From a virus, in the UHGV virus genome UHGV-0114647: a stretch of DNA of 17,667 bases. One strand, given 5' to 3'. Positions 4,659-17,180 of this stretch are shown piece after piece (position 1 is the first letter of the stretch; every line of letters begins with the position of its first letter). Below the pieces are notes generated by a model. The model saw only the letters and a program-made list of their open reading frames with translations. It was not told the origin of the DNA and ran no database searches. The position numbers were made by a program, and so were the translations under genes.

Positions 4659-4970
4659 ATGGAAAAGGTTTATAACACTCGTAAAATTCAGATTTCTATC
4701 CTGTGCCAGTTTATGGCTGATAAACACAACTCCCACTATTGTGGTACAGGTTTCCTTACTTTAGGTGGTGGCTACATTAGCTTTAAAGAAGCTGTGAAGA
4801 TGTACAACGAGCACCCTGAAGGTGACAAAGAGTTGAAACAACTGAAGCTTACTTATGACAAGAAGCGTAAGAAAATTGTATGCTTGAACAACCTTATCAA
4901 GCCAACTGAAAACGTTTATGATGCAATTGGTGAGGAAGGTTTCTTAAAAGTCTTGAAAATAGCTCAGTAA
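4659..4970 (+). CDS. hypothetical protein (103 aa)
   Basis: ORF with AAGGA upstream of the ATG. No recognisable motif. Confidence 0.5.
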   Translation: MEKVYNTRKIQISILCQFMADKHNSHYCGTGFLTLGGGYISFKEAVKMYNEHPEGDKELKQLKLTYDKKRKKIVCLNNLIKPTENVYDAIGEEGFLKVLKIAQ

Positions 4971-4982
4971 ACGTATATGATT

Positions 4983-5014
4983 AGGGAACTGTAAAAGGTT
5001 CCCTTTTTTATTTT
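4983..5014 (+). terminator. rho-independent terminator
   Basis: AGGGAAC-(8 nt loop)-GTTCCCT hairpin followed by a T-rich run TTTTTTATTTT. Confidence 0.6.
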
Positions 5015-6745: not shown

Positions 6746-8572
6746 ATGACTAAATCAATCTATGCAGTACCAGCAGGTCTTAATGCAGATGCTTATAAAG
6801 CGGGTCATATCTATCAGTATCCAGATGCTACACAGTATCTTATGTTGAACTTAACACCTCGTGGAGATAAATGGTTTAACTCTCCGTTAGAGATTGATGG
6901 TGTTGTAGCTTTTGGTATTCAGCGTTTTGTAAAAGACTATCTGGTAGACCACTGGAATGCAACGTTCTTTGAACGTGATAAGAAAGAAGCCATTGACGAA
7001 ATCTTGGAAATCATGAATGGTGTCCTTGGTGCAGATACTATTGGTCGTCAACATTGGGAAGAACTTCATGACTTGGGTTACCTACCTGTTGAAGTCTACT
7101 CTGTAGAGGAAGGTACAATTGTCCCTATGCGTGTCCCGATGATTGTCTTCAAAAATACTGTAGAGGGATTCCATTGGGTAGCTGGTTACCTTGAAGATGC
7201 TTTCTCTGCTGAAATCTGGAAAGCTTGTACGATTGCAACTATTGCACTGCATTACAAACGTATTTGTAAGCAATGGGCTGATTTAACCTGTGACAACGAC
7301 TCCCATTTACCTTGGCAGTGTCATGACTTTGCAATGCGTGGCATGTCTGGCTTCACAGATGATGCGTTTAACGCAGTAGGACACCTGACAAGCTTTAAAG
7401 GTACTGACAGCTTCCCTGCTGTCTACACTGCTAAACGTTCTTATGGTCAGTTTATGGAAGTAAGTGATATCGGCAACTCTGTACCAGCTACTGAACACTC
7501 TGTGATGTGCGCAAACATTTCATGGAATATGAAAGACTTGTCAGAGGAAGATATTCATTCACAGTACATCATGCGGTCTGATAGCTTGCTGGATGCAAAA
7601 CGTTGGCGTGGTGAGGTTAAAACCTTTGAGCATTTACTGGTAGACGTATATCCAACTGGTATTGCAAGTGTTGTTTCAGATACTTACAACTTCTGGCGTA
7701 CTGTTACAGAGATTCTGCCAGAGCTACGTAATGTAATTCTGAATCGTGATGGTAAGTTGGTAATTCGTCCAGACTCTGGAGACCCTGTTCACATTGTTAC
7801 AGGTTACAAAGCCGTTGAATGGGAAACTGCTAAGTCAATGTTCTACAAGCACATGAAAGGTCTTGCACCAGATAATACCCATCTGCATGACACAATCTTG
7901 AATTGTGAAATGTCTGATATTGGTTTTGGGTTCTCTGCTTGGTTAATCTCTGAAGGTTATGAGATGGTTGTTGAAAATGAAGATTTTGATTATATTGATA
8001 CAATCAACCTGATTACCGCTCAGAAAACTGGACAGTTTACTGTGAAGCGTATGTTAACAGCAGAAATTGATGGAGCTATCCACACGCTGTATAACATCTT
8101 TGGTGGTACTGTTAACTCCAAAGGGTACAAAGTACTGGATGAGCACATTGGACTAATCTACGGTGATTCTATCACTCTGGAAAGGGCTAATGAGATTCTG
8201 TCACGTCTTGCTGATAAAGGTTTTGCAAGTTCTAACGTAGTGTTTGGTGTAGGCTCATACACCTATCAGTACCTGACTCGTGACACCTTTGCATTTGCTG
8301 TTAAAGCAACTCTTGCACAGATGGATGGTCAAGAAATTATGCTGGCTAAAGACCCTAAAACTGACAGTGGTCTTAAGAAGTCTGCTTTTGGTGGAGTCGT
8401 CCCTATGTGGGATGGTGACAAGCTAGTAGCTGTAGATGGTTTTGGCTTTGCAGAGTTTGAAGGTGCAATTGACAATTGTCATAGTGCTTTGAAACTGGTA
8501 TTTAGTAACTCGCAACCTTATGGTTACGTTAACCTGCGTGATGTTCGAAATACTATTGACAAGCAACTTTAA
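6746..8572 (+). CDS. nadV: nicotinamide phosphoribosyltransferase family protein (NAMPT/NadV-like), 608 aa
   Basis: N-terminal DAYKAGHIYQYP (compare NAMPT DSYKxxHxxQYP); HDFAMRGMSG...HLTSFKGTDS (compare DFGYRG...HLVNFKGTD); VVSDTYNF; VIRPDSGDP; NSKGYKVL; GDSIT; FGVGSY; LTRD. About 100 aa longer than typical NAMPT. Confidence 0.8.
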   Translation: MTKSIYAVPAGLNADAYKAGHIYQYPDATQYLMLNLTPRGDKWFNSPLEIDGVVAFGIQRFVKDYLVDHWNATFFERDKKEAIDEILEIMNGVLGADTIGRQHWEELHDLGYLPVEVYSVEEGTIVPMRVPMIVFKNTVEGFHWVAGYLEDAFSAEIWKACTIATIALHYKRICKQWADLTCDNDSHLPWQCHDFAMRGMSGFTDDAFNAVGHLTSFKGTDSFPAVYTAKRSYGQFMEVSDIGNSVPATEHSVMCANISWNMKDLSEEDIHSQYIMRSDSLLDAKRWRGEVKTFEHLLVDVYPTGIASVVSDTYNFWRTVTEILPELRNVILNRDGKLVIRPDSGDPVHIVTGYKAVEWETAKSMFYKHMKGLAPDNTHLHDTILNCEMSDIGFGFSAWLISEGYEMVVENEDFDYIDTINLITAQKTGQFTVKRMLTAEIDGAIHTLYNIFGGTVNSKGYKVLDEHIGLIYGDSITLERANEILSRLADKGFASSNVVFGVGSYTYQYLTRDTFAFAVKATLAQMDGQEIMLAKDPKTDSGLKKSAFGGVVPMWDGDKLVAVDGFGFAEFEGAIDNCHSALKLVFSNSQPYGYVNLRDVRNTIDKQL

Positions 8573-8585
8573 AACAGTATGATAA

Positions 8586-8612
8586 GAGGCTCCTACGGGA
8601 GCCTTTTTAATT
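8586..8612 (+). terminator. rho-independent terminator
   Basis: GGCTCC-TACG-GGAGCC hairpin followed by TTTTTAATTT. Confidence 0.6.
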
Positions 8613-9184: not shown

Positions 9185-11557
9185 ATGCGCATGGTAAATG
9201 ACCACGCAACGGTAATTAAAAGCTCAAGTACACTGGAAACCTCTCAGGCTCAAATTAAGATGACACCTGAAATGTTCAGTCTTCTAAGCTCAGGTGTTTA
9301 CACATATAAAGAACGTGCTGTAATTCGTGAGTTATCATGTAACGCAGTAGATGCTCACATTGATTCTGGTAATGTTGATAAACCTTTCTTGGTTCACTTA
9401 CCAACTCGTTTTGAACCATTCTTTGAAGTTCGTGACTTTGGTACAGGGCTGACTCATGAAAAAGTTATGAAACTTTACATGACCTATGGAGAATCCACAA
9501 AGAACGATTCAAATGACTACATTGGTGCTATGGGTATCGGTTCAAAGTCACCATTTGCAATTGCTCAGTCATTCACTGTATCGAGCTATGTTGATGGTGT
9601 AGTTAACAAATACTCAGTTTACCTTGAGAATGGTATCCCTCAAGTAACTAAGTTGACTACTAACCCAACTACAGAGCCAAATGGTTTAGCTGTTCGAGTA
9701 GCGGTATCTGATAACCGTATTAACAAGTTTCATGAAGAAGCGAGCAATGTATACTCGTACTTTAAAGTTAAGCCAGAGTGTAATGTTGAGTACTATGACA
9801 TTCTTGAAGCAATGACTTCCATTTCTCGTGAAGATGGTGTCTATGATGCAATGAAGTACAAAGAGAACTGGCGTTCAAATAGTAACAGTGTCCATTTCAA
9901 CGTAATCATGGGTAATATTGCTTATCCTGTTGAAATGGGTGAGTTGCTTGGTTCAGAGTTTACAAGCATTCTGCCTCAGTTCTTCCGTAGTGCTGTAGAC
10001 CTTGTTAACATCTACATGCCAATTGGTTCAGTGGCTATTGCTGCATCCCGTGAAGCGTTGCAGATGAATGAGACTACTAAGACCAAGATTGTTGAAGCTG
10101 TGAAGAAAATTACTAAGACAATCGTAGAAGATGTGGTAAAAGAGATTGCTAATAAGCCAACTCTTATTGATGCTGCACAGGCTTACGATACCATGAGGAA
10201 AGAGGCTCGTGAAATCTTTAATCACGTCCAAGATTCTCTGGAATGGCAAGGCCAGAACTTGAAAAAGCTTGAACAGAAACTATTAGGTATTCGTCGTGGT
10301 CAGTTAACTGAAGCAGATGGTTCTCCGTCATTCTTGAAAGATGATGCAGGTAACTTGCGGCTTGACAAAGATGGTAATCCAGTTCCTAATATTGGTAATC
10401 TGTATGAACCTGTAGCATACTACAAGTACAGCAGTCTGGAGAATCGTATTCGAGCAACTTCAGCAACTTATTCACAAGATGCAGCAATGTTTAGTATCTT
10501 TGGTGCAATGAGTAAAGATAAGTTGAGCAACTATTTGTTCCTTATCAATGACCGTCGAAACAAAAACGGGTCTGAAAAGACAACTGGTAAAAACCAGATT
10601 ATACGTGGAGCTTGCCGTGACCGTGAACAGGAAGACTCTAACTTCCGTCGCTACAATGGTATTGCTTTCTTGTTCAGTAGTCAGCAGCAATTTGATGAGT
10701 TTGTAGATTTACATATGCTTGACAAGAGTCTGTTAAGTGTGCATACAATGTCATCTAAAGAGCACCACTATGAAAAACGTACTATTGTACGTGGTGTTGT
10801 AAAACTGTATAAAGCATTTATATGTCCAAATACTTACATGATTCGTTATACAGAGGTTAAAGAGAACTTTGATGAGATTGAAGAACCACAACTGTATATC
10901 AAAGCACAGAGTGATGAAGTGATTGGTGGAATCTTCTCATGTTCACCAGAACGTGCTGCAACGTTGATGACAGAGTTAACTGGACAGTCAGTTTATGTCT
11001 TCCGTAAAGCCAACTGGAAAAAGATTCCTGAAGACTGGACAGAAGTCAATGAACAAGTAATGAAAGATTTTATTGATAACACTCATTGGATTGAGTATCA
11101 TCGTTACTTGACTCACCAATATATGACTAATAATCATGATATCACTGATTGTAATGTGATTTCTCGAAACTTTATGTTTGCTGATAAGCGTAAGTCCAGA
11201 GGCCACATTTACAGTAAAGACTTTAAGAAGACTATTTTCTTAGAGGGGAATGAAGAGGCTATAGAAGCAATGTTTGGACGCTTGGCATATACTGCTGCAC
11301 CAGTTGCTTACAAAGATATTACCAGCACTCTTGATACCATCCGCAGGAATATGAGAGGCTCTTGTAAGCCAAGAAAGGTACTGGATAATGCTAAGAAGCG
11401 TCTTGAAAGCAAGTTCAAAGATTACTTTGAGAAACGCCGTAAAGAAAACTTCTTGCTTTCTAATCTGGATTGGAATAAAGTATCACCCGTCGAAGTTGGT
11501 AAGTTTTTAGGTTTTAACACTAAGAGCATCCCAGAAGATACCAACTGTTGGGAATAA
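9185..11557 (+). CDS. rIIA: rIIA protein (membrane-associated, GHKL-type ATPase N-terminal domain)
   Basis: N-terminus FSLLSSGVYTYKERAVIRELSCNAVDAH carries the GHKL N-box (E-L-x-x-N-A-x-D-A), and NDYIGAMGIGSKSPFA the G-box. Both segments closely track T4 rIIA as recalled. Size of 790 aa fits. Confidence 0.8.
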   Translation: MRMVNDHATVIKSSSTLETSQAQIKMTPEMFSLLSSGVYTYKERAVIRELSCNAVDAHIDSGNVDKPFLVHLPTRFEPFFEVRDFGTGLTHEKVMKLYMTYGESTKNDSNDYIGAMGIGSKSPFAIAQSFTVSSYVDGVVNKYSVYLENGIPQVTKLTTNPTTEPNGLAVRVAVSDNRINKFHEEASNVYSYFKVKPECNVEYYDILEAMTSISREDGVYDAMKYKENWRSNSNSVHFNVIMGNIAYPVEMGELLGSEFTSILPQFFRSAVDLVNIYMPIGSVAIAASREALQMNETTKTKIVEAVKKITKTIVEDVVKEIANKPTLIDAAQAYDTMRKEAREIFNHVQDSLEWQGQNLKKLEQKLLGIRRGQLTEADGSPSFLKDDAGNLRLDKDGNPVPNIGNLYEPVAYYKYSSLENRIRATSATYSQDAAMFSIFGAMSKDKLSNYLFLINDRRNKNGSEKTTGKNQIIRGACRDREQEDSNFRRYNGIAFLFSSQQQFDEFVDLHMLDKSLLSVHTMSSKEHHYEKRTIVRGVVKLYKAFICPNTYMIRYTEVKENFDEIEEPQLYIKAQSDEVIGGIFSCSPERAATLMTELTGQSVYVFRKANWKKIPEDWTEVNEQVMKDFIDNTHWIEYHRYLTHQYMTNNHDITDCNVISRNFMFADKRKSRGHIYSKDFKKTIFLEGNEEAIEAMFGRLAYTAAPVAYKDITSTLDTIRRNMRGSCKPRKVLDNAKKRLESKFKDYFEKRRKENFLLSNLDWNKVSPVEVGKFLGFNTKSIPEDTNCWE

Positions 11558-11564
11558 AAATAGT

Positions 11565-11593
11565 TTGACAGGGGATGAAAAGCCCCTTAGAAT
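11565..11593 (+). promoter_or_regulatory. sigma70-like promoter upstream of rIIB with embedded hairpin
   Basis: TTGACA at 11565-11570, 17 nt spacer, TAGAAT at 11588-11593. The spacer is the hairpin GGGGAT-GAAA-AGCCCC. Confidence 0.45.
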
Positions 11594-11636
11594 ACGAACC
11601 ACTAAGTAATTTTAAACAACAAAGAGAGATATTGAA

Positions 11637-12749
11637 ATGACTACTAAGACTAAAGCACAAATCGACGCAGAAATCTATGCACTGGTTAAAGAAGGTAAAC
11701 TGACCAAAACTGCAATCGCTCTGAAGTATAACACTTCAACCCGTTCGGTAGGTCGTGCTGTAGAGCGTCATGAAGCAACGCTGCTGTCAGGGAAAACCAA
11801 AGCAAAACCTGAAAAGACTCTGAAAGATATTGCAAAGAAAGCTAAAGCGACCAAGAAAGTATCTAAGCAGAAGCCTGTTGCAAAAGCTGTTAAAGAAGCA
11901 GTCAAAGCAGAACCTGTAAATGCTCTGCATGAAGCAATGCAGAAGAACAGCCAGATTGAGTACATGATTACTGGTGATTCTGTTATCATGACTTTCGGTG
12001 CAGAGTCTGAGATTGTTGAGTCAACTCACCCTAACTACACTGATATTGTAATGGCTGTTGTTTCAGGTGAGTACAAGAAAGCTTTTGAACTGATGAACAT
12101 TCGCAAGTCTATTGAGAACTTCACTCAGGGTGCTGTAACCATCAAAGGCGACAACCTGTATTACGGTGCTGTTCAGATGCGCTCAACTCTGGTAGACCGT
12201 ATTCTGGATATGATGAAGAAAGGTGATAATGGTTTTGTTCGACTGATTGCATTCTTCGAAAAACTGATGGAAAACCCATCAAAAGATTCTGTAGAACAAC
12301 TTTGGGGCTTTGTATCACACCTCGATGTTGAAATTGATGAAGAAGGTTATATCATCGGTTGGAAGAAAGTCACAACTCGTGGTGGTAAACTGTTTGACTC
12401 TCGTACCTGCAAAGTTCCAAATGATTTGGGTAACATTGTAGAGATGCCACGTTGGATGGTTGATAATAACCGCCATGTAACCTGCTCTCAGGGTCTGCAC
12501 GTTGGTGCTTGGAATTATGTAACTAGCTTCTCTGGTGACACTATCCTGAAAGTTCGTGTTCATCCTCGTGATGTTGTTTCAGTACCAACTGACTACAACG
12601 ACATGAAAATGCGAGCTTCCCGTTATGAAGTTGCAGCGATTGTAAATAGTCGCCGTGAAGTCATCAAAGAGTGGGATGGTTCAGAAGCACTCCACGTAGT
12701 TGTAGGTACTGCTGGTGAACTGATTTCTCAGCGTAAACGTGAAGTCTAA
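11637..12749 (+). CDS. rIIB: rIIB protein
   Basis: Immediately downstream of rIIA in the same orientation, as in T4. N-terminal region has the helix-turn-helix-like pattern expected for rIIB. Assignment is by synteny plus weak recalled similarity. Confidence 0.55.
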   Translation: MTTKTKAQIDAEIYALVKEGKLTKTAIALKYNTSTRSVGRAVERHEATLLSGKTKAKPEKTLKDIAKKAKATKKVSKQKPVAKAVKEAVKAEPVNALHEAMQKNSQIEYMITGDSVIMTFGAESEIVESTHPNYTDIVMAVVSGEYKKAFELMNIRKSIENFTQGAVTIKGDNLYYGAVQMRSTLVDRILDMMKKGDNGFVRLIAFFEKLMENPSKDSVEQLWGFVSHLDVEIDEEGYIIGWKKVTTRGGKLFDSRTCKVPNDLGNIVEMPRWMVDNNRHVTCSQGLHVGAWNYVTSFSGDTILKVRVHPRDVVSVPTDYNDMKMRASRYEVAAIVNSRREVIKEWDGSEALHVVVGTAGELISQRKREV

Positions 12750-12765
12750 TAAGTAAATTCCTAAA

Positions 12766-12793
12766 GGGGCTGCTTCGGCAGCCTTTTTTATTT
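12766..12793 (+). terminator. rho-independent terminator after rIIB
   Basis: GGCTGC-TTCG-GCAGCC hairpin followed by TTTTTTATTT. Confidence 0.65.
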
Positions 12794-12819
12794 GAAAAAT
12801 GTGCAGGTTAGTGTATAAT
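12792..12819 (+). promoter_or_regulatory. sigma70-like promoter
   Basis: TTGAAA at 12792-12797, 16 nt spacer, perfect TATAAT at 12814-12819. AGGAG RBS at 12841-12845 follows. Confidence 0.5.
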
Positions 12820-12850
12820 TGTCTGCATGTTTAACAAAATAGGAGTGCAA

Positions 12851-13399
12851 ATGAAGAAATTTGTTTTAGGTTTGTGCTTATTCTTTACAGCACATTTAGC
12901 TACAGCGTCTGACTGTCCAGAGCTTACAATCAGTCAGAAAGTTAATATGTTAAAAGCATATAACTATGGAGAAGGACAGATGGGAAAAGGTTGGGGAATC
13001 CCTTTAGCAGCTATAGCCTTACAAGAGTCACAATTAGGTGTCATGTTAGAAAATAAAAAGACTCATGATTATGGTGTTTTCCAAAATCACTTGAAGACTG
13101 TTGTAAAGCGTAACAAGGTATCTCCAAAGGTTGCTAAGAAGAAGCTAGTAAGCGACTTCCATTACTCAGCGAAAGAGGCTCATAAGGAGCTATTATTCTG
13201 GACTAAGGTTCATGGTAACCCAGATGGAAAGTACTCTATGAAGCGTGTCCTAGCTTCTTATAATGCTGGTTACAAATACAAGATTCCAAAGGCTAGACAA
13301 TACTCTCAAGATGTGTACAATAACATGAAACTGCTGGCTCAATGTGAGTTTGCAACAAACATTAAAAAGGTAAAATATGAGCGAATCAAAACAATTTGA
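12851..13399 (+). CDS. secreted lytic transglycosylase-like protein (SLT domain) with N-terminal signal peptide
   Basis: ATG at 12851. Signal peptide MKKFVLGLCLFFTAHLATA. SLT-like motifs AAIALQESQLG (catalytic Glu-Ser), DYGVFQ and ASYNAGYKY. Confidence 0.55.
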   Translation: MKKFVLGLCLFFTAHLATASDCPELTISQKVNMLKAYNYGEGQMGKGWGIPLAAIALQESQLGVMLENKKTHDYGVFQNHLKTVVKRNKVSPKVAKKKLVSDFHYSAKEAHKELLFWTKVHGNPDGKYSMKRVLASYNAGYKYKIPKARQYSQDVYNNMKLLAQCEFATNIKKVKYERIKTI

Positions 13400-14072
13400 C
13401 ATGGTTCTGTGTCATGCTTATGATATCAAGCCACTTGATTTAGATATCAGTTCTGCAAGTTGGCCAGATATTGCTAAAGCTGACTTTGCAGATACAGCAA
13501 GAAATGTTGTGTGTAGCTTTGAAGACTTCCACTCAACAAAGACACAGATTCCTTGTCAGGATTTGCTAACAGGTAAAACTGTATATGTTGGTCGTAATAG
13601 TCTTATCTTGGTTGCAAAGAACTTGGAAGAAAAACGTAAAATGGTCTTAGCAGACATTGATGGTGTTCTTACAAGCTTTGACAAGAAACTTAATGCAACT
13701 CTGTTAGATGACGGCACTTACTCACAGTATACTAACTTGGTAGACTCTCGCAGAGCTAAACCAACATATGTTTTTAACATCCTGTGTGGTATATCAAGAA
13801 ATGCTGATATAGGATTCTTAACTGCTCGTGGAGAATCACAAAGAGTTGTCACACATCTTTTCCTGAATGAGAATGTAGACAGTGATTTCCTACTGTTTAT
13901 GCGTGGATTTGGTGACAATGAGATTAGTGCAGAAAGTTTAAAAGTTCGTATGCTTCAGTCTTGCATTCTACCTTACTATGATGTAGTATGCTTTATAGAA
14001 GATACAGTGAAGAACGTGGCAAAGGTTGAAAGAATCTTACCACACATCAAAACAATGCTTGTTAAAAACTGA
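13377..14072 (+). CDS. hypothetical protein with HAD-like motif I (possible phosphatase/nucleotidase)
   Basis: MVLADIDGVLTSF resembles HAD motif I (hhhhDxDx[TV]); later GFLTARGE could be motif II. No P-loop, so not a Pnk kinase domain. Confidence 0.45.
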   Translation: MSESKQFDMVLCHAYDIKPLDLDISSASWPDIAKADFADTARNVVCSFEDFHSTKTQIPCQDLLTGKTVYVGRNSLILVAKNLEEKRKMVLADIDGVLTSFDKKLNATLLDDGTYSQYTNLVDSRRAKPTYVFNILCGISRNADIGFLTARGESQRVVTHLFLNENVDSDFLLFMRGFGDNEISAESLKVRMLQSCILPYYDVVCFIEDTVKNVAKVERILPHIKTMLVKN

Positions 14073-14083
14073 GAGAGTAAACC

Positions 14084-14548
14084 ATGCAAAACATTATTAC
14101 AGTAGCTATCGATGCTTCCGGTAACAAATCACAGGTAGTTCGTGAGATTATCAAAAGTAATTTCGATGGTAAAATCTTTCGTGCAGTAAACGTGAAAGCT
14201 GATGGTAACATTCGTGAGTATCGTGCCATGTTGAATGTCACAAAACACGTTAAGGGTGTTGGTTCAACTACTGCTCATAAAGAAAATCTGATGACTATCT
14301 ATGATATGGGTATGGCTTCAGAGTTAGGTGCAAAAGGGATTGTACAATCCGGTGCTCCTTACCGTTCTTTCAATCTGGAAACTGCTCTTATGCTTTCCTT
14401 TACAAGTGGTTCTCAAACTACCACTTACCTCTTCACAGATACTGCAACGGTTTCTGCGATTAAGGACAATACCATTAAGGCTGGCGTAGCTGCTGCTTCA
14501 AAAGCCTCAACAATGGCAGCAAATGTCCTTGCGAAAGTTCTTGGTTAA
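14084..14548 (+). CDS. hypothetical protein (154 aa)
   Basis: GAGAG RBS upstream of the ATG. Followed by a strong terminator. No recognisable motif. Confidence 0.5.
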   Translation: MQNIITVAIDASGNKSQVVREIIKSNFDGKIFRAVNVKADGNIREYRAMLNVTKHVKGVGSTTAHKENLMTIYDMGMASELGAKGIVQSGAPYRSFNLETALMLSFTSGSQTTTYLFTDTATVSAIKDNTIKAGVAAASKASTMAANVLAKVLG

Positions 14549-14557
14549 AGTTATTAT

Positions 14558-14585
14558 AGAGGCTCCTTCGGGAGCCTTTTCATTT
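14558..14585 (+). terminator. rho-independent terminator
   Basis: GGCTCC-TTCG-GGAGCC hairpin followed by TTTTCATTT. Confidence 0.6.
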
Positions 14586-14601
14586 ATGTAAGGGGTATAT
14601 T

Positions 14602-14703
14602 ATGATTAAAGTTATCAAGATAATACCATCATTGGTAATGCTCATAGTAGGGGTAGGTATCATACTTATGCTTTGCCCTGCTTTTTGGCCTTTTATCTTA
14701 TAA
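14602..14703 (+). CDS. putative micro-protein, single TM helix (33 aa)
   Basis: Below the ORF-track cutoff. AAGGGG at 14590-14595, ATG at 14602. Translates to MIKVIKIIPSLVMLIVGVGIILMLCPAFWPFIL. Confidence 0.3.
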   Translation: MIKVIKIIPSLVMLIVGVGIILMLCPAFWPFIL

Positions 14704-14722
14704 TAGTCTAGGAGATTGACAA

Positions 14723-15070
14723 ATGACATTCAAAGAATTTTGTCAAGCAGCTTTTGTAATCATGTTTTTGTTAGGTGTAGGTGCTTGGGGTGGCTATACT
14801 TACAAGACTAGCCAAGTTAACGAGAAAGAGTTGACTAATCAGAAGCTTGTTAGTGTTGCTAAAGATGCTTATCAAGAAGGTTTATCAAATCTTAGCTCCA
14901 ATTACAAAAATGATTTGAAAGATGTGCTTGCTAAAAACAAACACACCAAAGAGGTATTGAACTATGAAAAAACTAAAACAGTCTTTATTAATGATTGTGC
15001 TACTGAGCCTTATGTCAGGGTGTTCAACGAACAAAGTGAACAGTACCTTCAAAAACTCCCAAGTAAGTGA
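14723..15070 (+). CDS. i-spanin-like protein (N-terminal TM anchor, periplasmic domain)
   Basis: AGGAGA RBS at 14709-14714. N-terminal TM helix AAFVIMFLLGVGAWGGY followed by a charged, coiled-coil-like periplasmic region. 115 aa, with a lipoprotein gene embedded in another frame at its 3' end. Confidence 0.5.
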   Translation: MTFKEFCQAAFVIMFLLGVGAWGGYTYKTSQVNEKELTNQKLVSVAKDAYQEGLSNLSSNYKNDLKDVLAKNKHTKEVLNYEKTKTVFINDCATEPYVRVFNEQSEQYLQKLPSK

Positions 15071-15233
15071 GAGTGACAAGTACACTCAAGAAGAAGCACG
15101 ATATGAAGTTAAAAGCACTAAAGGCAGAGATATTGCAAGTGCTCTTGAGTTTTATCGTGATGGCTACTATGAATGTACTATTAAGGCAAACAATTTAATT
15201 GATATGATTTTGTTAGGGAATAAACAGCAATGA
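14964..15233 (+). CDS. o-spanin-like outer-membrane lipoprotein
   Basis: AAAGAGGT RBS at 14948-14955. Lipoprotein signal MKKLKQSLLMIVLLSLMSGC with Ser at +2; mature part has a C-terminal Cys. Overlaps the preceding gene by about 107 nt in a different frame. Confidence 0.5.
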   Translation: MKKLKQSLLMIVLLSLMSGCSTNKVNSTFKNSQVSESDKYTQEEARYEVKSTKGRDIASALEFYRDGYYECTIKANNLIDMILLGNKQQ

Positions 15234-15499
15234 CAGAGAAGAATGAAACATTTTTTGTGGAAGGTTATCTTCTGTTACCAAGACCAAGTAACACTTACAT
15301 GAGATTTGACATTATGCCAACGGTTATGGATGATGTAACTTGTCACATCTTTATGCAGGGTGTTTCTGCACAACTTAAGCATGTTGGAAGAGATTGCAAA
15401 ATACGTGTTGACAACCATCCTGAAATCAACGAGAATCACTACACATGGTTCGGGGAAGATTCTAAAGAAATCTATGCAGTCCTTAAAACGAGGAAATAA
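15230..15499 (+). CDS. hypothetical protein (89 aa)
   Basis: ATGA-coupled to the upstream stop. No recognisable motif. Confidence 0.45.
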   Translation: MTEKNETFFVEGYLLLPRPSNTYMRFDIMPTVMDDVTCHIFMQGVSAQLKHVGRDCKIRVDNHPEINENHYTWFGEDSKEIYAVLKTRK

Positions 15500-15500
15500 C

Positions 15501-15656
15501 ATGGACAAGCAAAAGTTACTTAAGCTTATTGAAGAGTATGGTGATTCTCGTTACAATGAAGCTGGAGAAAGTTGTGTAGGTTCTGTAGAGGCTCTGACAC
15601 TCTGGGAAGAATCCTCAGCAGCCTTACTCCAACAAATTAAAGAAGTCATCCAGTGA
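15501..15656 (+). CDS. hypothetical small protein (51 aa)
   Basis: ATG at 15501 with GAGGAAA at 15490-15496. Shorter than the long ORF opening at 15360, which overlaps the upstream gene. Confidence 0.35.
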   Translation: MDKQKLLKLIEEYGDSRYNEAGESCVGSVEALTLWEESSAALLQQIKEVIQ

Positions 15657-15665
15657 GGTTTAGTG

Positions 15666-15992
15666 ATGCAACTAGATGGTAAGAATTATGTAGCCGTCTT
15701 TTCAGACGGTGAGAAAGAAATTGGTACAGCACAAGTCTGTCACAGTGGTAAAGAATTTCTCTATGGGGTTGTTGCATTCATTGGCACTCGTGGAGATATG
15801 AAATCTTTTAAAGATTGTGTTGACAAGCTTGAAGAATCCATAGAGAATCATTGGTGTCTGATATGGCTTAATGCAGAGAATGTTAAAGAACGCTATGCAA
15901 AAGTTGGTATCCATATTGAAAGCATCGAACATGTTGACCTGTTTGAGCTAACTGAAAAGGTGATGTATGAAAATTCTGTTAATCAGAAATAA
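15666..15992 (+). CDS. hypothetical protein (108 aa)
   Basis: ATG at 15666 with GAGG upstream. No recognisable motif. Confidence 0.45.
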   Translation: MQLDGKNYVAVFSDGEKEIGTAQVCHSGKEFLYGVVAFIGTRGDMKSFKDCVDKLEESIENHWCLIWLNAENVKERYAKVGIHIESIEHVDLFELTEKVMYENSVNQK

Positions 15993-16191
15993 AAAGACTC
16001 GTCAGATTATTGCAACTGGCGTTCATGTAGGCCGTAATGAAGTAGTACCTTTTACTGAAATCTTCTCACATGAAGATAAGAGCTATACAAATTACTTGAA
16101 TAGCAAATTTTGCCGCTCAAATCTTGAAGATTTCAAGAAGACTTTTAAGAGTAATCGTACTATTATTCAAGAGGTAATCTTCAATGGCTGA
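15967..16191 (+). CDS. hypothetical protein (74 aa)
   Basis: AAAGGTGA RBS. Overlaps the upstream gene by 26 nt. Confidence 0.4.
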   Translation: MKILLIRNKKTRQIIATGVHVGRNEVVPFTEIFSHEDKSYTNYLNSKFCRSNLEDFKKTFKSNRTIIQEVIFNG

Positions 16192-16384
16192 TTTCTGCAC
16201 TAAGTGTTCTGTTGAGATGTTTGGAAAAGACACAGGGGACTTAAAAGGTCTCTTTACAAAAGCAGAGTTTGAAGCTGGTTCAGCAATGCCAGTAATCTGT
16301 GAAGGTTGTGGTGCTTTATGGGTAGACCATGAAGGTAACCGAGTTAAACCATCTGAAGATAACGAACGTTGGGAGCATTACTAA
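16184..16384 (+). CDS. small zinc-ribbon protein (66 aa)
   Basis: AGAGGT RBS. Two Cys pairs, CTKC and CEGC. Overlaps both flanking genes. Confidence 0.45.
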   Translation: MADFCTKCSVEMFGKDTGDLKGLFTKAEFEAGSAMPVICEGCGALWVDHEGNRVKPSEDNERWEHY

Positions 16385-16385
16385 T

Positions 16386-17180
16386 ATGGGTATCGTAAAA
16401 ATTATTAAAGGTGATATCTTTAAAGACTTTGATGGTAAGAAGTTTGATATCATTGGTCACGGTTGTAACTGTATGAACTTGATGCCAGCAGGTATCGCAG
16501 CAACAATTGCCAAACGTTACCCAAAAGCTTATGAAACTGACGCTGAAGTTTATGCTGCAGTAGGTGGTGAAAATCATAACCCTAAGCATCTAATGCTTGG
16601 TAACATCTCTGTAGCACGTTTTAAGCAGGGTCGAATTGCTAACCTTTACACTCAGGTTATCACTGGCAAAGATGCACGATACAACGCCTTAGAAGCAGCT
16701 TTACAGCGTCTTAACAACTACTGTAAAGTTAATCAACTTAAGAAAGTTGGGCTTCCGATGATTGGTGCAGGGATTGGTGGTCTTGATAGCATGGCTGTGC
16801 TGTCCATTATCAACCAGACTATGAAGGATGTTGACGTTTATATGTATGTCTATGAAGATAAGATGTACAGTCAGTTGACTAGTCCTGTTACTGGTTGGGA
16901 GAACTTCAGTGAGCCTCAATACTTTGATGGTGTTGCTGTGGTAGGCAAGGATAAAGTTACCCTCAAGGTGAAGCGTAATGGCAAGGTACACACCAGTTAC
17001 CCTCCGGTTGAGAAGTACAATCGGAGTAACGCTCAAGTTACCCACCCGTTACAAGGCCACCACCACAGAGCGGTAACGTTTGGTGATGATGCAAGTGTAT
17101 ATATCAATGCGACTACAGAAGAGTTTGCAGAAGATTATATCACACATGAAAACGTAAACTATGTTGAAGCACGTAACTAA
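16386..17180 (+). CDS. macro-domain protein (ADP-ribose binding/processing) with C-terminal extension
   Basis: N-terminus MGIVKIIKGDIFKDFDGKKFDIIGHGCNCMNLMPAGIAATIAKRYP matches the macro-domain opening (GDI-[TF]...D-x-I-V-N-A-A-N...G-G-V). Later GLPMIGAGIGGLD resembles the phosphate-binding glycine-rich loop. Confidence 0.6.
   Translation: MGIVKIIKGDIFKDFDGKKFDIIGHGCNCMNLMPAGIAATIAKRYPKAYETDAEVYAAVGGENHNPKHLMLGNISVARFKQGRIANLYTQVITGKDARYNALEAALQRLNNYCKVNQLKKVGLPMIGAGIGGLDSMAVLSIINQTMKDVDVYMYVYEDKMYSQLTSPVTGWENFSEPQYFDGVAVVGKDKVTLKVKRNGKVHTSYPPVEKYNRSNAQVTHPLQGHHHRAVTFGDDASVYINATTEEFAEDYITHENVNYVEARN

Follow-up and report, generated by a model that had tools for sequence, protein, structure and literature searches.

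Genes and signals at the locus

The window considered here, the whole analysed stretch of 17,667 nucleotides from virus genome UHGV-0114647, is a genome segment of a Mooglevirus, a Felix O1-like myophage. On its plus strand, positions 12851..13399 encode a protein of 182 amino acids that belongs to the Vs.1 family (PHROG 600) and is a predicted exported peptidoglycan glycosidase of the GH23/SLT-like type. The gene is preceded by the intrinsic terminator of rIIB (12763..12790, plus strand), which has a core stem of GGCTGC and GCAGCC, a TTCG loop and a following T-run, folds as RNA at -15.6 kcal/mol (z -2.76), is kept in Mooglevirus and Felixounavirus, and is marked as a terminator in the annotation of phage Michonne. 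A consensus terminator scan skipped this structure because its T-run was absorbed by extension of the stem.

Only 2 nt separate the end of this terminator from the -35 element of a sigma70-type promoter (12792..12819, plus strand), which consists of TTGAAA at 12792-12797, a spacer of 16 nt, where the optimum is 17, and TATAAT at 12814-12819. The initial annotation had assigned the gene its own promoter directly after the rII terminator and had called it the best match in the window. The promoter is present as described, but the ranking does not hold, as its 11/12 consensus match is shared in a five-way tie with plus-strand sites at 8556, 9124, 11565 and 13396, among which it is distinguished as the one site with a perfect -10 hexamer. 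The whole window contains 69 promoter-like matches against 45 +/- 7 in shuffled sequences, so that any single match is weak evidence. Across Mooglevirus and Felixounavirus the -10 hexamer of this promoter is invariant, and the -35 hexamer is either TTGAAA or TTGTAT. Transcription of the gene would start near 12826.

Host RNA polymerase would thus be expected to initiate just past the rIIB terminator and to produce a transcript spanning three genes. The second of these, annotated as a polynucleotide kinase (PNK; HAD-like; 13377..14072, plus strand; PHROG 3970, E 3.4e-127), begins 23 nt inside the 3' end of the Vs.1-type gene, and the third (14084..14548, plus strand) encodes 154 amino acids matching PHROG 2267, a match that assigns no function. 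The predicted transcript would end at a terminator with a 9-pair stem, including 5 GC pairs, and a T-run (14558..14579, plus strand), which lies upstream of the spanin genes and is annotated at the equivalent position in Michonne. The spanins themselves are an i-spanin with an N-terminal transmembrane domain (14723-15070) and an o-spanin with the lipobox LMSGC (14964-15233). They begin 1,324 nt past the Vs.1-type gene, in agreement with the distance of about 1.3 kb given initially, and the remark that no holin is evident in between is borne out by the lack of any membrane-spanning protein from the Vs.1-type gene to the spanins. The 26-bp start-associated repeat of phage Mordin is absent from the window.

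Translation start and export

The true start of the Vs.1-type gene is very probably the ATG at 12851, which is preceded at a distance of 5 nt by the Shine-Dalgarno sequence AGGAG (12841..12845, plus strand). The ribosome binding site is annotated likewise in Michonne, and the annotations of both KPS64 and Michonne use the equivalent start. The ATG at 12827, from which the mechanically called open reading frame begins, was rejected, having no Shine-Dalgarno sequence, lying where the transcript is predicted to begin and being unconserved in Felixounavirus.

From the start at 12851, residues 1-19 form a signal peptide, MKKFVLGLCLFFTAHLATA (12851..12907, plus strand), with n-, h- and c-regions and an A-x-A motif, and signal peptidase I is predicted to cut between Ala19 and Ser20, where the mature sequence begins with SD. 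These calls rest on rules of thumb rather than on a trained predictor. The N-terminus contains an uncharged stretch of 17 residues with an h-region of about 11-13 residues, and its best 19-residue Kyte-Doolittle mean of 1.52 is below the transmembrane threshold used. Among relatives, the small residues at -3 and -1 are kept and position -2 and the sequence of the h-region vary; a crude signal-peptide test was passed by 121 of 163. The classical cleavable Sec signal peptide proposed at the outset is therefore upheld, its A-x-A site being retained across divergent relatives. A lipoprotein reading of LGLC (residues 6-9) was discarded, given that this motif comes too early in the protein, with Leu in the -1 position.

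The distribution of two cysteines provides further information on the mature protein. Cys22 and Cys165 are both present in 70 relatives, both absent from 73 and found singly in 22 (Fisher p 3e-24, uncorrected for phylogeny), and this newly noted co-variation suggests a periplasmic disulfide. Export of the 182-residue precursor would proceed through Sec, signal peptidase I would remove the first 19 residues, and the mature protein of about 163 residues would fold in the periplasm, probably clamped by the Cys22-Cys165 disulfide.

Domain, fold and family membership

Domain searches gave a divided answer to the suggestion of a lytic transglycosylase. The Pfam SLT model (PF01464) scores the protein at 18.4 bits (E 0.0017), short of the gathering cut-off of 21.3, but the same model is matched by 10 of 11 close relatives (E <= 0.01, best 2.6e-6) and T4 Vs.1 clears the cut-off with 25.1 bits. 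NCBIfam gave no relevant match to the protein. Solved-structure searches with the single protein and with an 11-sequence profile returned only spurious kinase and designed-repeat matches, and only a 149-sequence profile reached EtgA as the best match (E 6.4e-6) and c-type lysozymes. The AlphaFold2 model has a mean pLDDT of 79, and in blocks of 10 residues over residues 31-160 the values are mostly 88-96, falling to 76-78 in two loops. Its best matches in BFVD are phage SLT-domain proteins (E 1e-8, TM 0.7), and a Foldseek search against the PDB gave a weak E of 0.12 with a probability of 0.99. The modelled fold is that of the goose-lysozyme/SLT group.

The gene is the counterpart, by orthology, of phage T4 vs.1 in the Felix O1 group. 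The phrog_600 profile matches it over its full length (E 3.6e-57, residues 1-170 on positions 1-176 of 178), which places it in the family to which T4 vs.1 itself has been assigned (PMC11879866 supplement), and BLASTP against T4 Vs.1 (UniProt P13311) gave 33% identity over 167 columns (E 2e-14). Besides full-length homology, the two proteins share a near-equal size (181 amino acids in T4, 182 here), an N-terminal signal peptide, the motifs E-S, Y-G-x-F-Q-N and S-Y-N-x-G, and a place in an early gene region. They differ in that T4 Vs.1 has Ala at the position of Asp73, has no Cys22/Cys165 pair, and is encoded between regB and vs rather than between rIIB and the PNK-like gene. A homolog is present in 1,929 phage records, comprising T4-like, Vi1-like and Felix O1-like phages. 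The plasmid collection contained no homolog, and a scan of representative bacterial genomes with the close alignment, which concerns close relatives, produced pattern matches and no true relative.

The kind of gene is thus already known. GenBank holds an identical protein as "putative lysin" or "lytic transglycosylase domain-containing protein", and a publication of 2006 reportedly noted a weak SLT similarity of T4 Vs.1. In the literature we found no described function of Vs.1; the main texts of the HIDEN-SEQ and CRISPRi-ART studies are silent on it, with data carried in their supplements only, and no mention of the Vs.1-type protein occurs in the cryo-EM paper on Bas63. The initial observation is real and was correctly read from the sequence, and its interpretation as a protein with a Sec signal peptide and an SLT-like catalytic domain, expressed from its own promoter and outside any holin cassette, is supported.

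Active site and predicted chemistry

The three SLT-like motifs named in the initial annotation, ESQ (59-61), YGVFQ (74-78) and YNAGY (137-141), are all present. The codons of the catalytic Glu59-Ser60 lie at 13025..13030, those of Asp73-Tyr-Gly-Val-Phe-Gln78, which form a lysozyme/EtgA-like D-Y-G-x-x-Q motif, at 13067..13084, and those of Tyr137-Asn-Ala-Gly140, corresponding to SLT motif III, at 13259..13270 (all plus strand). Glu59 aligns with Glu42 of EtgA and motif III with Y116-N117-A-G119. Loss of the catalytic Glu from the alignment had been named as the observation that would overturn the enzymatic reading, and Glu59 proved to be invariant in 165 of 165 relatives. In the same set, S60 is found in 160 sequences, G75 in 159, Q78 in 97 (with His in 55), Y137 in 165, N138 in 153, G140 in 164 and Y151 in 165, and Gly63 and Trp117 are near-invariant, so that the complete motif set of catalytic Glu in E-S, G-x-x-Q, Y-N-x-G and distal Tyr is represented.

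The closest correspondence is to EtgA, the active site of which consists of E42, N54, D60, Q65, N67, Y116, N117, G119 and Y133 (PMC10880428). Residues E59, N68, D73, Q78, Y137, N138, G140 and Y151 of the Vs.1-type protein align on E42, N54, D60, Q65, Y116, N117, G119 and Y133, giving identity at 8 of the 9 positions, the exception being N67, which is replaced by H80. DYGVFQ aligns with T-Y-D60-I-G-I-M-Q65 of EtgA and with D52-Y-G-I-L-Q of hen egg-white lysozyme (HEWL). As aligned, the active site matches the "hybrid" type of EtgA, with Asp73 as the putative equivalent of lysozyme Asp52, an assignment that is new in this analysis. Every sequence of the Ounavirinae clade has Asp73; the wider family has D at this position in 64 sequences and S in 79. 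Slt70 has Ala rather than Asp at the position equivalent to lysozyme Asp52 (PMC10880428), where the Vs.1-type protein has Asp73.

Judging from the fold and the conserved residues, the protein would act as a single-domain GH23 enzyme in which Glu59, as general acid, cleaves the MurNAc-GlcNAc bond in the glycan strands of peptidoglycan. The product would be either 1,6-anhydro-MurNAc, as made by a lytic transglycosylase (LT), or a reducing end, as made by a muramidase; since Asp73 occupies the position of lysozyme Asp52, hydrolysis is a possibility and either product may form. Muralytic activity and the biological role of the Vs.1 family are what we infer from these comparisons. With its EtgA-like active site the protein, being soluble, is well suited as a model in which to compare the chemistry of lytic transglycosylases with that of muramidases.

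Expression, fitness and virion data from relatives

Published data sets on related phages contain information on the timing and importance of the gene. T4 vs.1 is early as RNA and middle as protein (PMC9697503 supplement), and ORF 3 of Felix O1 is transcribed ahead of the late class (PMC3185647 Table 3). In knock-down experiments T4 vs.1 was scored as "Semi-Fit" and the ortholog in the Felix O1-like phage SUSP1 as "Not Fit" (PMC11879866 supplements). Among the 17 proteins found in Felix O1 virions, gp3 is not included (PMC3185647).

Homologs in T4-like, Vi1-like, Vibrio and Shewanella phages are always located among early or metabolic genes, and early-region neighbours of Vs.1 homologs were seen in five lineages. 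The initial annotation considered an early-type promoter on a periplasmic murein enzyme to be unusual; in a large phage family this combination is instead conserved as the rule. Such a putative early exported wall-cleaving enzyme is encoded by approximately 1,900 sequenced phages, which represent three major lineages of myophages infecting Gram-negative bacteria.

Comparison with known exported wall enzymes

Close counterparts of the Vs.1-type protein are EtgA, IagB and IpgF, specialised peptidoglycan glycosidases of type III secretion systems (PDB 4XP8, 8URN), which are likewise small (about 150-180 amino acids), Sec-exported and composed of a single GH23 domain, with a disulfide that is present in EtgA and predicted in the Vs.1-type protein. 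Identity to EtgA is only 28%, however, and the type III or type IV secretion or pilus machinery that characterizes the class is replaced here by a lytic phage genome with rIIB, PNK-like and spanin neighbours. No counterpart of the EscI-like docking partner of EtgA is found near the gene, leaving regulation by docking without a visible equivalent. The protein would work like these enzymes and is not a member of their class. The family 1 lytic transglycosylases of E. coli (Slt70, MltC, MltE/EmtA and MltF) are multidomain or lipid-anchored, whereas the Vs.1-type protein is a free single domain.

Among phage enzymes, a parallel is offered by Tgl of the Kayvirus phages of Staphylococcus, a Sec-secreted, LT-like second endolysin expressed from a host-type early promoter (PMC7150955). 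Both proteins have a cleavable signal peptide with A-x-A and accompany a canonical endolysin that depends on a holin, and the Tgl promoter is host-type and active without phage proteins (PMC7150955). The differences are that Tgl serves phages of a Gram-positive host, belongs to another LT family (IsaA/SceD-like, pfam06737), is encoded three genes from lysK, where the Vs.1-type gene is far from the endolysin gene, and has an activity established by experiment, where that of the Vs.1-type protein is predicted. By sequence, all four features of a secreted auxiliary endolysin are found together, namely a Sec signal, a muralytic domain, a host-type early promoter and a canonical endolysin in the same phage type.

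The SAR endolysins (P1 Lyz, phage 21 R) and the signal-peptide endolysin Lys44 of fOg44 are also exported phage muralytic enzymes independent of holins. These are, however, the sole endolysins of their phages and are encoded in the lysis cassette, and SAR domains are uncleaved, longer, Gly/Ala-rich anchors. The Vs.1-type protein differs by its short h-region, kept cleavage site, separate GH24 endolysin and place in the early region; in our heuristic judgement it does not have the uncleaved, weakly hydrophobic anchor of about 20 residues that defines a SAR endolysin.

Biological role

We consider it likely that the vs.1 ortholog encodes a Sec-exported auxiliary wall enzyme of the GH23 type, acting independently of a holin beside the GH24 endolysin. 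Under this model, in its least certain step, the enzyme would begin to nick or remodel the sacculus early or midway through infection and would not by itself bring about lysis. It would help the GH24 endolysin and the spanins to finish lysis, or might matter only in natural settings, for instance in non-growing or wall-modified hosts. The knock-down scores, which indicate that the gene is dispensable, fit an auxiliary role, and little or no cost would also be expected, equally, of a condition-specific role outside lysis. Counting against the model, early synthesis of an active periplasmic glycosidase should endanger the infected cell at a time when no progeny are finished. For a restraint on the enzyme, the model borrows from the secreted endolysins of Gram-positive phages and from the tolerance of E. 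coli to periplasmic LT overproduction (PMC10139938).

The signal sequence and muralytic domain, the spanins 1.3 kb downstream and the GenBank name "putative lysin" would also suit the principal endolysin of the phage, exported by Sec like Lys44 or as a SAR protein, released by collapse of the membrane potential through a holin or pinholin, and essential for lysis. This is improbable given that Mooglevirus Sf17 (gp017) and Felix O1 (gp35) encode a canonical GH24 endolysin elsewhere, that knock-down in SUSP1 was "Not Fit", that T4 possesses Vs.1 although it lyses by gpe and holin t, and that the gene shares a separate operon with the PNK-like gene, closed by a terminator ahead of the spanins. 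The SAR version is additionally contradicted by the h-region of about 11-13 residues, the kept A-x-A and a hydrophobicity under the transmembrane threshold. Nor is the protein a canonical holin-dependent endolysin, that is, a cytoplasmic principal lysin, having a signal peptide and a separate GH24 enzyme beside it. The earlier proposal of an exported endolysin is unlikely as far as a sole lysin is meant. Another initial proposal, an aid to DNA injection, fares worse: a virion-associated wall-piercing enzyme of the T7 gp16, PRD1 P7 or T4 gp5 type is hardly credible for a free-standing 18-kDa domain without an attachment module, encoded in the early region and not among tail or baseplate genes, whose cleavable Sec signal removes it from the cytoplasm where virions are assembled and whose Felix O1 relative gp3 is absent from the virion proteome in the literature (PMC3185647).

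A retained but inactive fold, serving as a peptidoglycan binder or as a decoy for the inhibitors Ivy, MliC and PliG, could account for the weak Pfam score. Inactive homologs usually lose catalytic and substrate-binding residues; here Glu59 is kept in every relative and conservation extends to the Tyr, Asn, Gly and Gln residues that bind substrate, and we regard this possibility as very improbable. Less easily set aside, though still unlikely in our estimation, is an early periplasmic wall remodeller with a purpose other than lysis, for instance hindrance of superinfection, enlargement of the cell in prolonged infection or lysis inhibition, clearing of uncross-linked strands, or muropeptide signalling or recycling. 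The family is consistently found among genes of early host takeover and nucleotide metabolism, with rII adjacent or rI close by, and not with late lysis genes, T4 vs.1 RNA is early, its fitness effect is mild in a host without special defences, and the family has been kept in three phage lineages, all of which would suit such a remodeller. Against it, no conserved partner or regulator gene adjoins the family, and early synthesis is also known for secreted endolysins.

Implications

If the enzyme is an auxiliary lysin, as we favour, it would constitute a Gram-negative parallel of Kayvirus Tgl and other secreted second endolysins, and enzybiotic design could profit from a compact enzyme that is naturally active in the periplasm; another role would represent a new step of host takeover. 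It can also be speculated, as a rather doubtful extension, that the Vs.1 family is a distinct class of early, Sec-exported enzymes that reshape the sacculus while the host is being taken over and are not devoted to terminal lysis, and that the Felix O1 clade with Asp73 has switched from lytic transglycosylase to muramidase. Were this true, a T4 gene left unexplained for decades would acquire a function.

Family membership and genomic setting

The 17.7-kb window shares 96-99% identity with Mooglevirus genomes, among them Shigella phage ESh19 and Citrobacter phage BSwM KMM4. Mooglevirus belongs to the Ounavirinae, the Felix O1-like myophages infecting Shigella, Citrobacter and E. coli. The window is an early region with nrdD, NAD-salvage genes, rIIA (9185-11557), rIIB (11637-12749), the gene under study (12851-13399), a PNK-like gene, spanins and a macro-domain gene.

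An identical protein is encoded by Shigella phage Henu12. Among 50,697 phage records compared by translated search, 1,929 hold homologs, including Tevenvirinae and other Straboviridae, Ackermannviridae, Vibrio schizoT4 phages, Shewanella phages and Ounavirinae; none of 72,556 plasmids does. The match in T4-type genomes is gene vs.1, flanked by regB and vs, whose product shares 33% identity with the 182-residue protein (E 2e-14), equals it in length and likewise carries a signal peptide; the gene is the counterpart of T4 vs.1. It is a member of a known, widespread and already annotated phage family, with low novelty; our search for literature on Vs.1 function found nothing beyond Nolan et al.

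Catalytic domain and active site

Sequence evidence for the SLT-like identity proposed in the initial annotation is thin from this protein alone (Pfam SLT at 18.4 bits, below the 21.3 cut-off; nothing in NCBIfam; only noise in a PDB sequence search) but strong at the family level. Pfam SLT is matched by 10 of 11 relatives, and in BFVD the fold can be overlaid on phage proteins labelled 'SLT domain-containing' (E 1e-8). An exhaustive profile search returned 624 cluster representatives, nearly all of 150-210 residues and with alignments that begin at the N-terminus. In a set of 165 of these, Glu59, Tyr137 and Tyr151 are unchanging and Ser60, Gly63, Gly75, Trp117, Asn138 and Gly140 almost invariant, so that the catalytic glutamate on which the proposal had been made to depend is conserved.

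With a 149-sequence profile, the best match among solved structures was EtgA (E 6.4e-6), a peptidoglycan glycosidase that serves type III secretion in EPEC; c-type lysozymes came next, with E35 and D52-Y-G-x-x-Q-I-N as the aligned positions. Direct alignment with EtgA gives 28% identity, and its E42/N54/D60/Q65/Y116/N117/G119/Y133, the published active-site set (PMC10880428), correspond to E59/N68/D73/Q78/Y137/N138/G140/Y151 here. EtgA has been described as a muramidase/lytic transglycosylase 'hybrid' owing to D60, the equivalent of lysozyme D52, with its product type left unresolved (PMC10880428), and the same uncertainty would apply to the chemistry of the predicted enzyme. Asp73 is invariant within the Felix O1-group clade; in the wider family 64 sequences have Asp at this position and 79 have Ser, in many cases preceded by an Asp two residues upstream, and T4 Vs.1 has Ala.

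Predicted export signal and cysteines

The N-terminus comprises two lysines, a hydrophobic core of 11-13 residues and A-T-A preceding Ser20. Among relatives the core drifts in sequence, while position -1 is Ala or Ser, -3 small or aliphatic and -2 variable (ATA, AVA, AIA, ALA, TFA, VYA, SFA, VNA, AHA, ANA; AHS in T4), the apparent signature of signal peptidase I, and 121 of 163 relatives pass a crude signal-peptide test. These features argue for the cleavable Sec signal originally proposed. A SAR domain is unlikely, since the N-terminal stretch falls short of a membrane anchor in both length and hydrophobicity. Cys22 and Cys165 co-occur: 70 sequences have both, 73 have neither and 22 have a single one (p 3e-24, with no correction for phylogeny). 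The pattern is what a structural disulfide would be expected to produce in exported proteins. Three relatives (P0015, P0016 and P0019) carry a lipobox-like L-S-A-C or A-V-G-C within the signal sequence, and a loose lipobox pattern occurs in 8 of 163 family members; lipoproteins, and not soluble enzymes alone, may therefore exist in the Vs.1 family.

Transcription and timing

All sequence features named in the initial annotation were found. The promoter at 12792-12819 (+; TTGAAA-16-TATAAT) matches at 11/12 positions, but it ties with four other sites and its ranking as the best in the window was overstated. Since this AT-rich DNA has many such matches (69 found, 45 expected), a single one is little proof by itself. 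Conservation adds weight to the prediction: the hairpin of the rIIB terminator (12763-12790; -15.6 kcal/mol, z -2.76) and the -10 hexamer are retained both in Mooglevirus and in Felixounavirus, which is more distant and has TTGTAT as its -35. The mechanical reading frame begins at 12827, but AGGAG at 12841-12845, the annotated start in KPS64 and Michonne and the absence of the upstream ATG from Felixounavirus point to ATG 12851 as the true start. The 3' end overlaps the PNK-like gene (13377-14072, +) by 23 nt, and the unit formed by these genes and a third ORF is closed by a terminator at 14558-14579.

Another 11/12 match (TTGACA-17-TATGAT; 13396-13424, +) lies at the extreme end of the gene, shortly after the ATG of the PNK-like gene at 13377, and may be an internal promoter or chance. 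The label 'polynucleotide kinase' (PHROG 3970) on the latter may overstate knowledge: its sole Pfam match is weak and HAD-phosphatase-like (residues 81-213, E 0.073), and no kinase domain was recognisable in that search. At 407-457, 4953-5004, 8556-8607 and 14529-14579 (+), the last base of a sigma70-like promoter match is also the first of a terminator hairpin, which is directly followed by the next gene's Shine-Dalgarno and ATG. These would be compact terminator/promoter overlaps, in which RNA starting about 7 nt past the -10 would begin within the hairpin's 5' arm and so escape the terminator that halts upstream read-through; the gene studied here has the opposite order, terminator first.

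Early expression of a periplasmic muralytic enzyme had been regarded as unusual. The pairing is instead the norm for this family, because Vs.1-type genes have early or metabolic neighbours in all lineages examined and never sit in a late lysis cassette, T4 vs.1 RNA is classed as early and its protein as middle (PMC9697503 supplement), and ORF 3, the Felix O1 counterpart, belongs by its RT-PCR peak to class three of the four in Table 3 of PMC3185647, which from the row order would be '25 min'.

Possible role during infection

The sequence analyses directly support the fold, the conservation of catalytic residues, the export signature, the layout of the operon, the orthology and the non-endolysin status. 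The initial interpretation was essentially right and the finding real. Of the roles it suggested, that of an exported endolysin is unlikely if this were the phage's only lysin: Mooglevirus Sf17 encodes a GH24 endolysin (gp017) elsewhere in its genome and the Felix O1 lysin is gp35, which makes the present protein a second wall enzyme. As noted originally, no holin is evident before the spanins, both of which lie after the 14558-14579 terminator; membrane proteins are absent from the interval. The i-spanin has a TMD at its N-terminus and the o-spanin a lipobox, LMSGC. A part in DNA entry, also proposed, is unlikely, because gp3 is not listed in Felix O1 virion proteomics (PMC3185647) and a Sec signal is incompatible with virion packaging. 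In the laboratory such genes are dispensable or nearly so, given the CRISPRi-ART scores of T4 vs.1 ('Semi-Fit', 0.81, p 0.099), grouped there with genes of 'purely unknown function', and the SUSP1 ortholog AVU07_agp083 ('Not Fit', 1.02, p 0.28; PMC11879866 supplement).

We propose that host RNA polymerase would transcribe the gene from early or mid infection, and that Sec and signal peptidase would deliver an 18-kDa disulfide-bonded glycosidase into the periplasm, where Glu59 would cut MurNAc-GlcNAc bonds. Most speculatively, limited cleavage might be tolerated until the holin fires and then hasten or secure lysis, or might count solely on non-growing or wall-modified hosts. Such tolerance is supported by Kayvirus Tgl, a second, LT-like endolysin that is secreted through Sec, has an early promoter of the host type and lyses S. 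aureus only upon membrane depolarisation (PMC7150955), and by the recovery of E. coli from periplasmic MltA/MltB overproduction via the Rcs response (PMC10139938). A less probable role in wall remodelling, unconnected with lysis, would agree with the early-gene neighbourhood just as well as an auxiliary-lysis role. The remaining interest lies in Vs.1 family biology, as predicted from sequence, and in the EtgA-like hybrid active site.

Shared genes with T4

The macro-domain gene (16329-17180, +, 283 aa) encodes an N-terminal Macro domain (Pfam E 9.4e-7) and about 120 extra C-terminal residues with no match; the protein is 38% identical (E 5e-18) to T4 Tk.4, named AdfM, an anti-DarTG2 factor, in a 2025 preprint. 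Set against T4 at 59-62 kb, the Mooglevirus early region at 9185-17180 includes counterparts of T4 early accessory genes (rIIA, rIIB, Vs.1, a Pnk-like gene, Tk.4 macro and NrdD) arranged in another order, which suggests that Straboviridae and Ounavirinae draw on a common pool of host-takeover genes.
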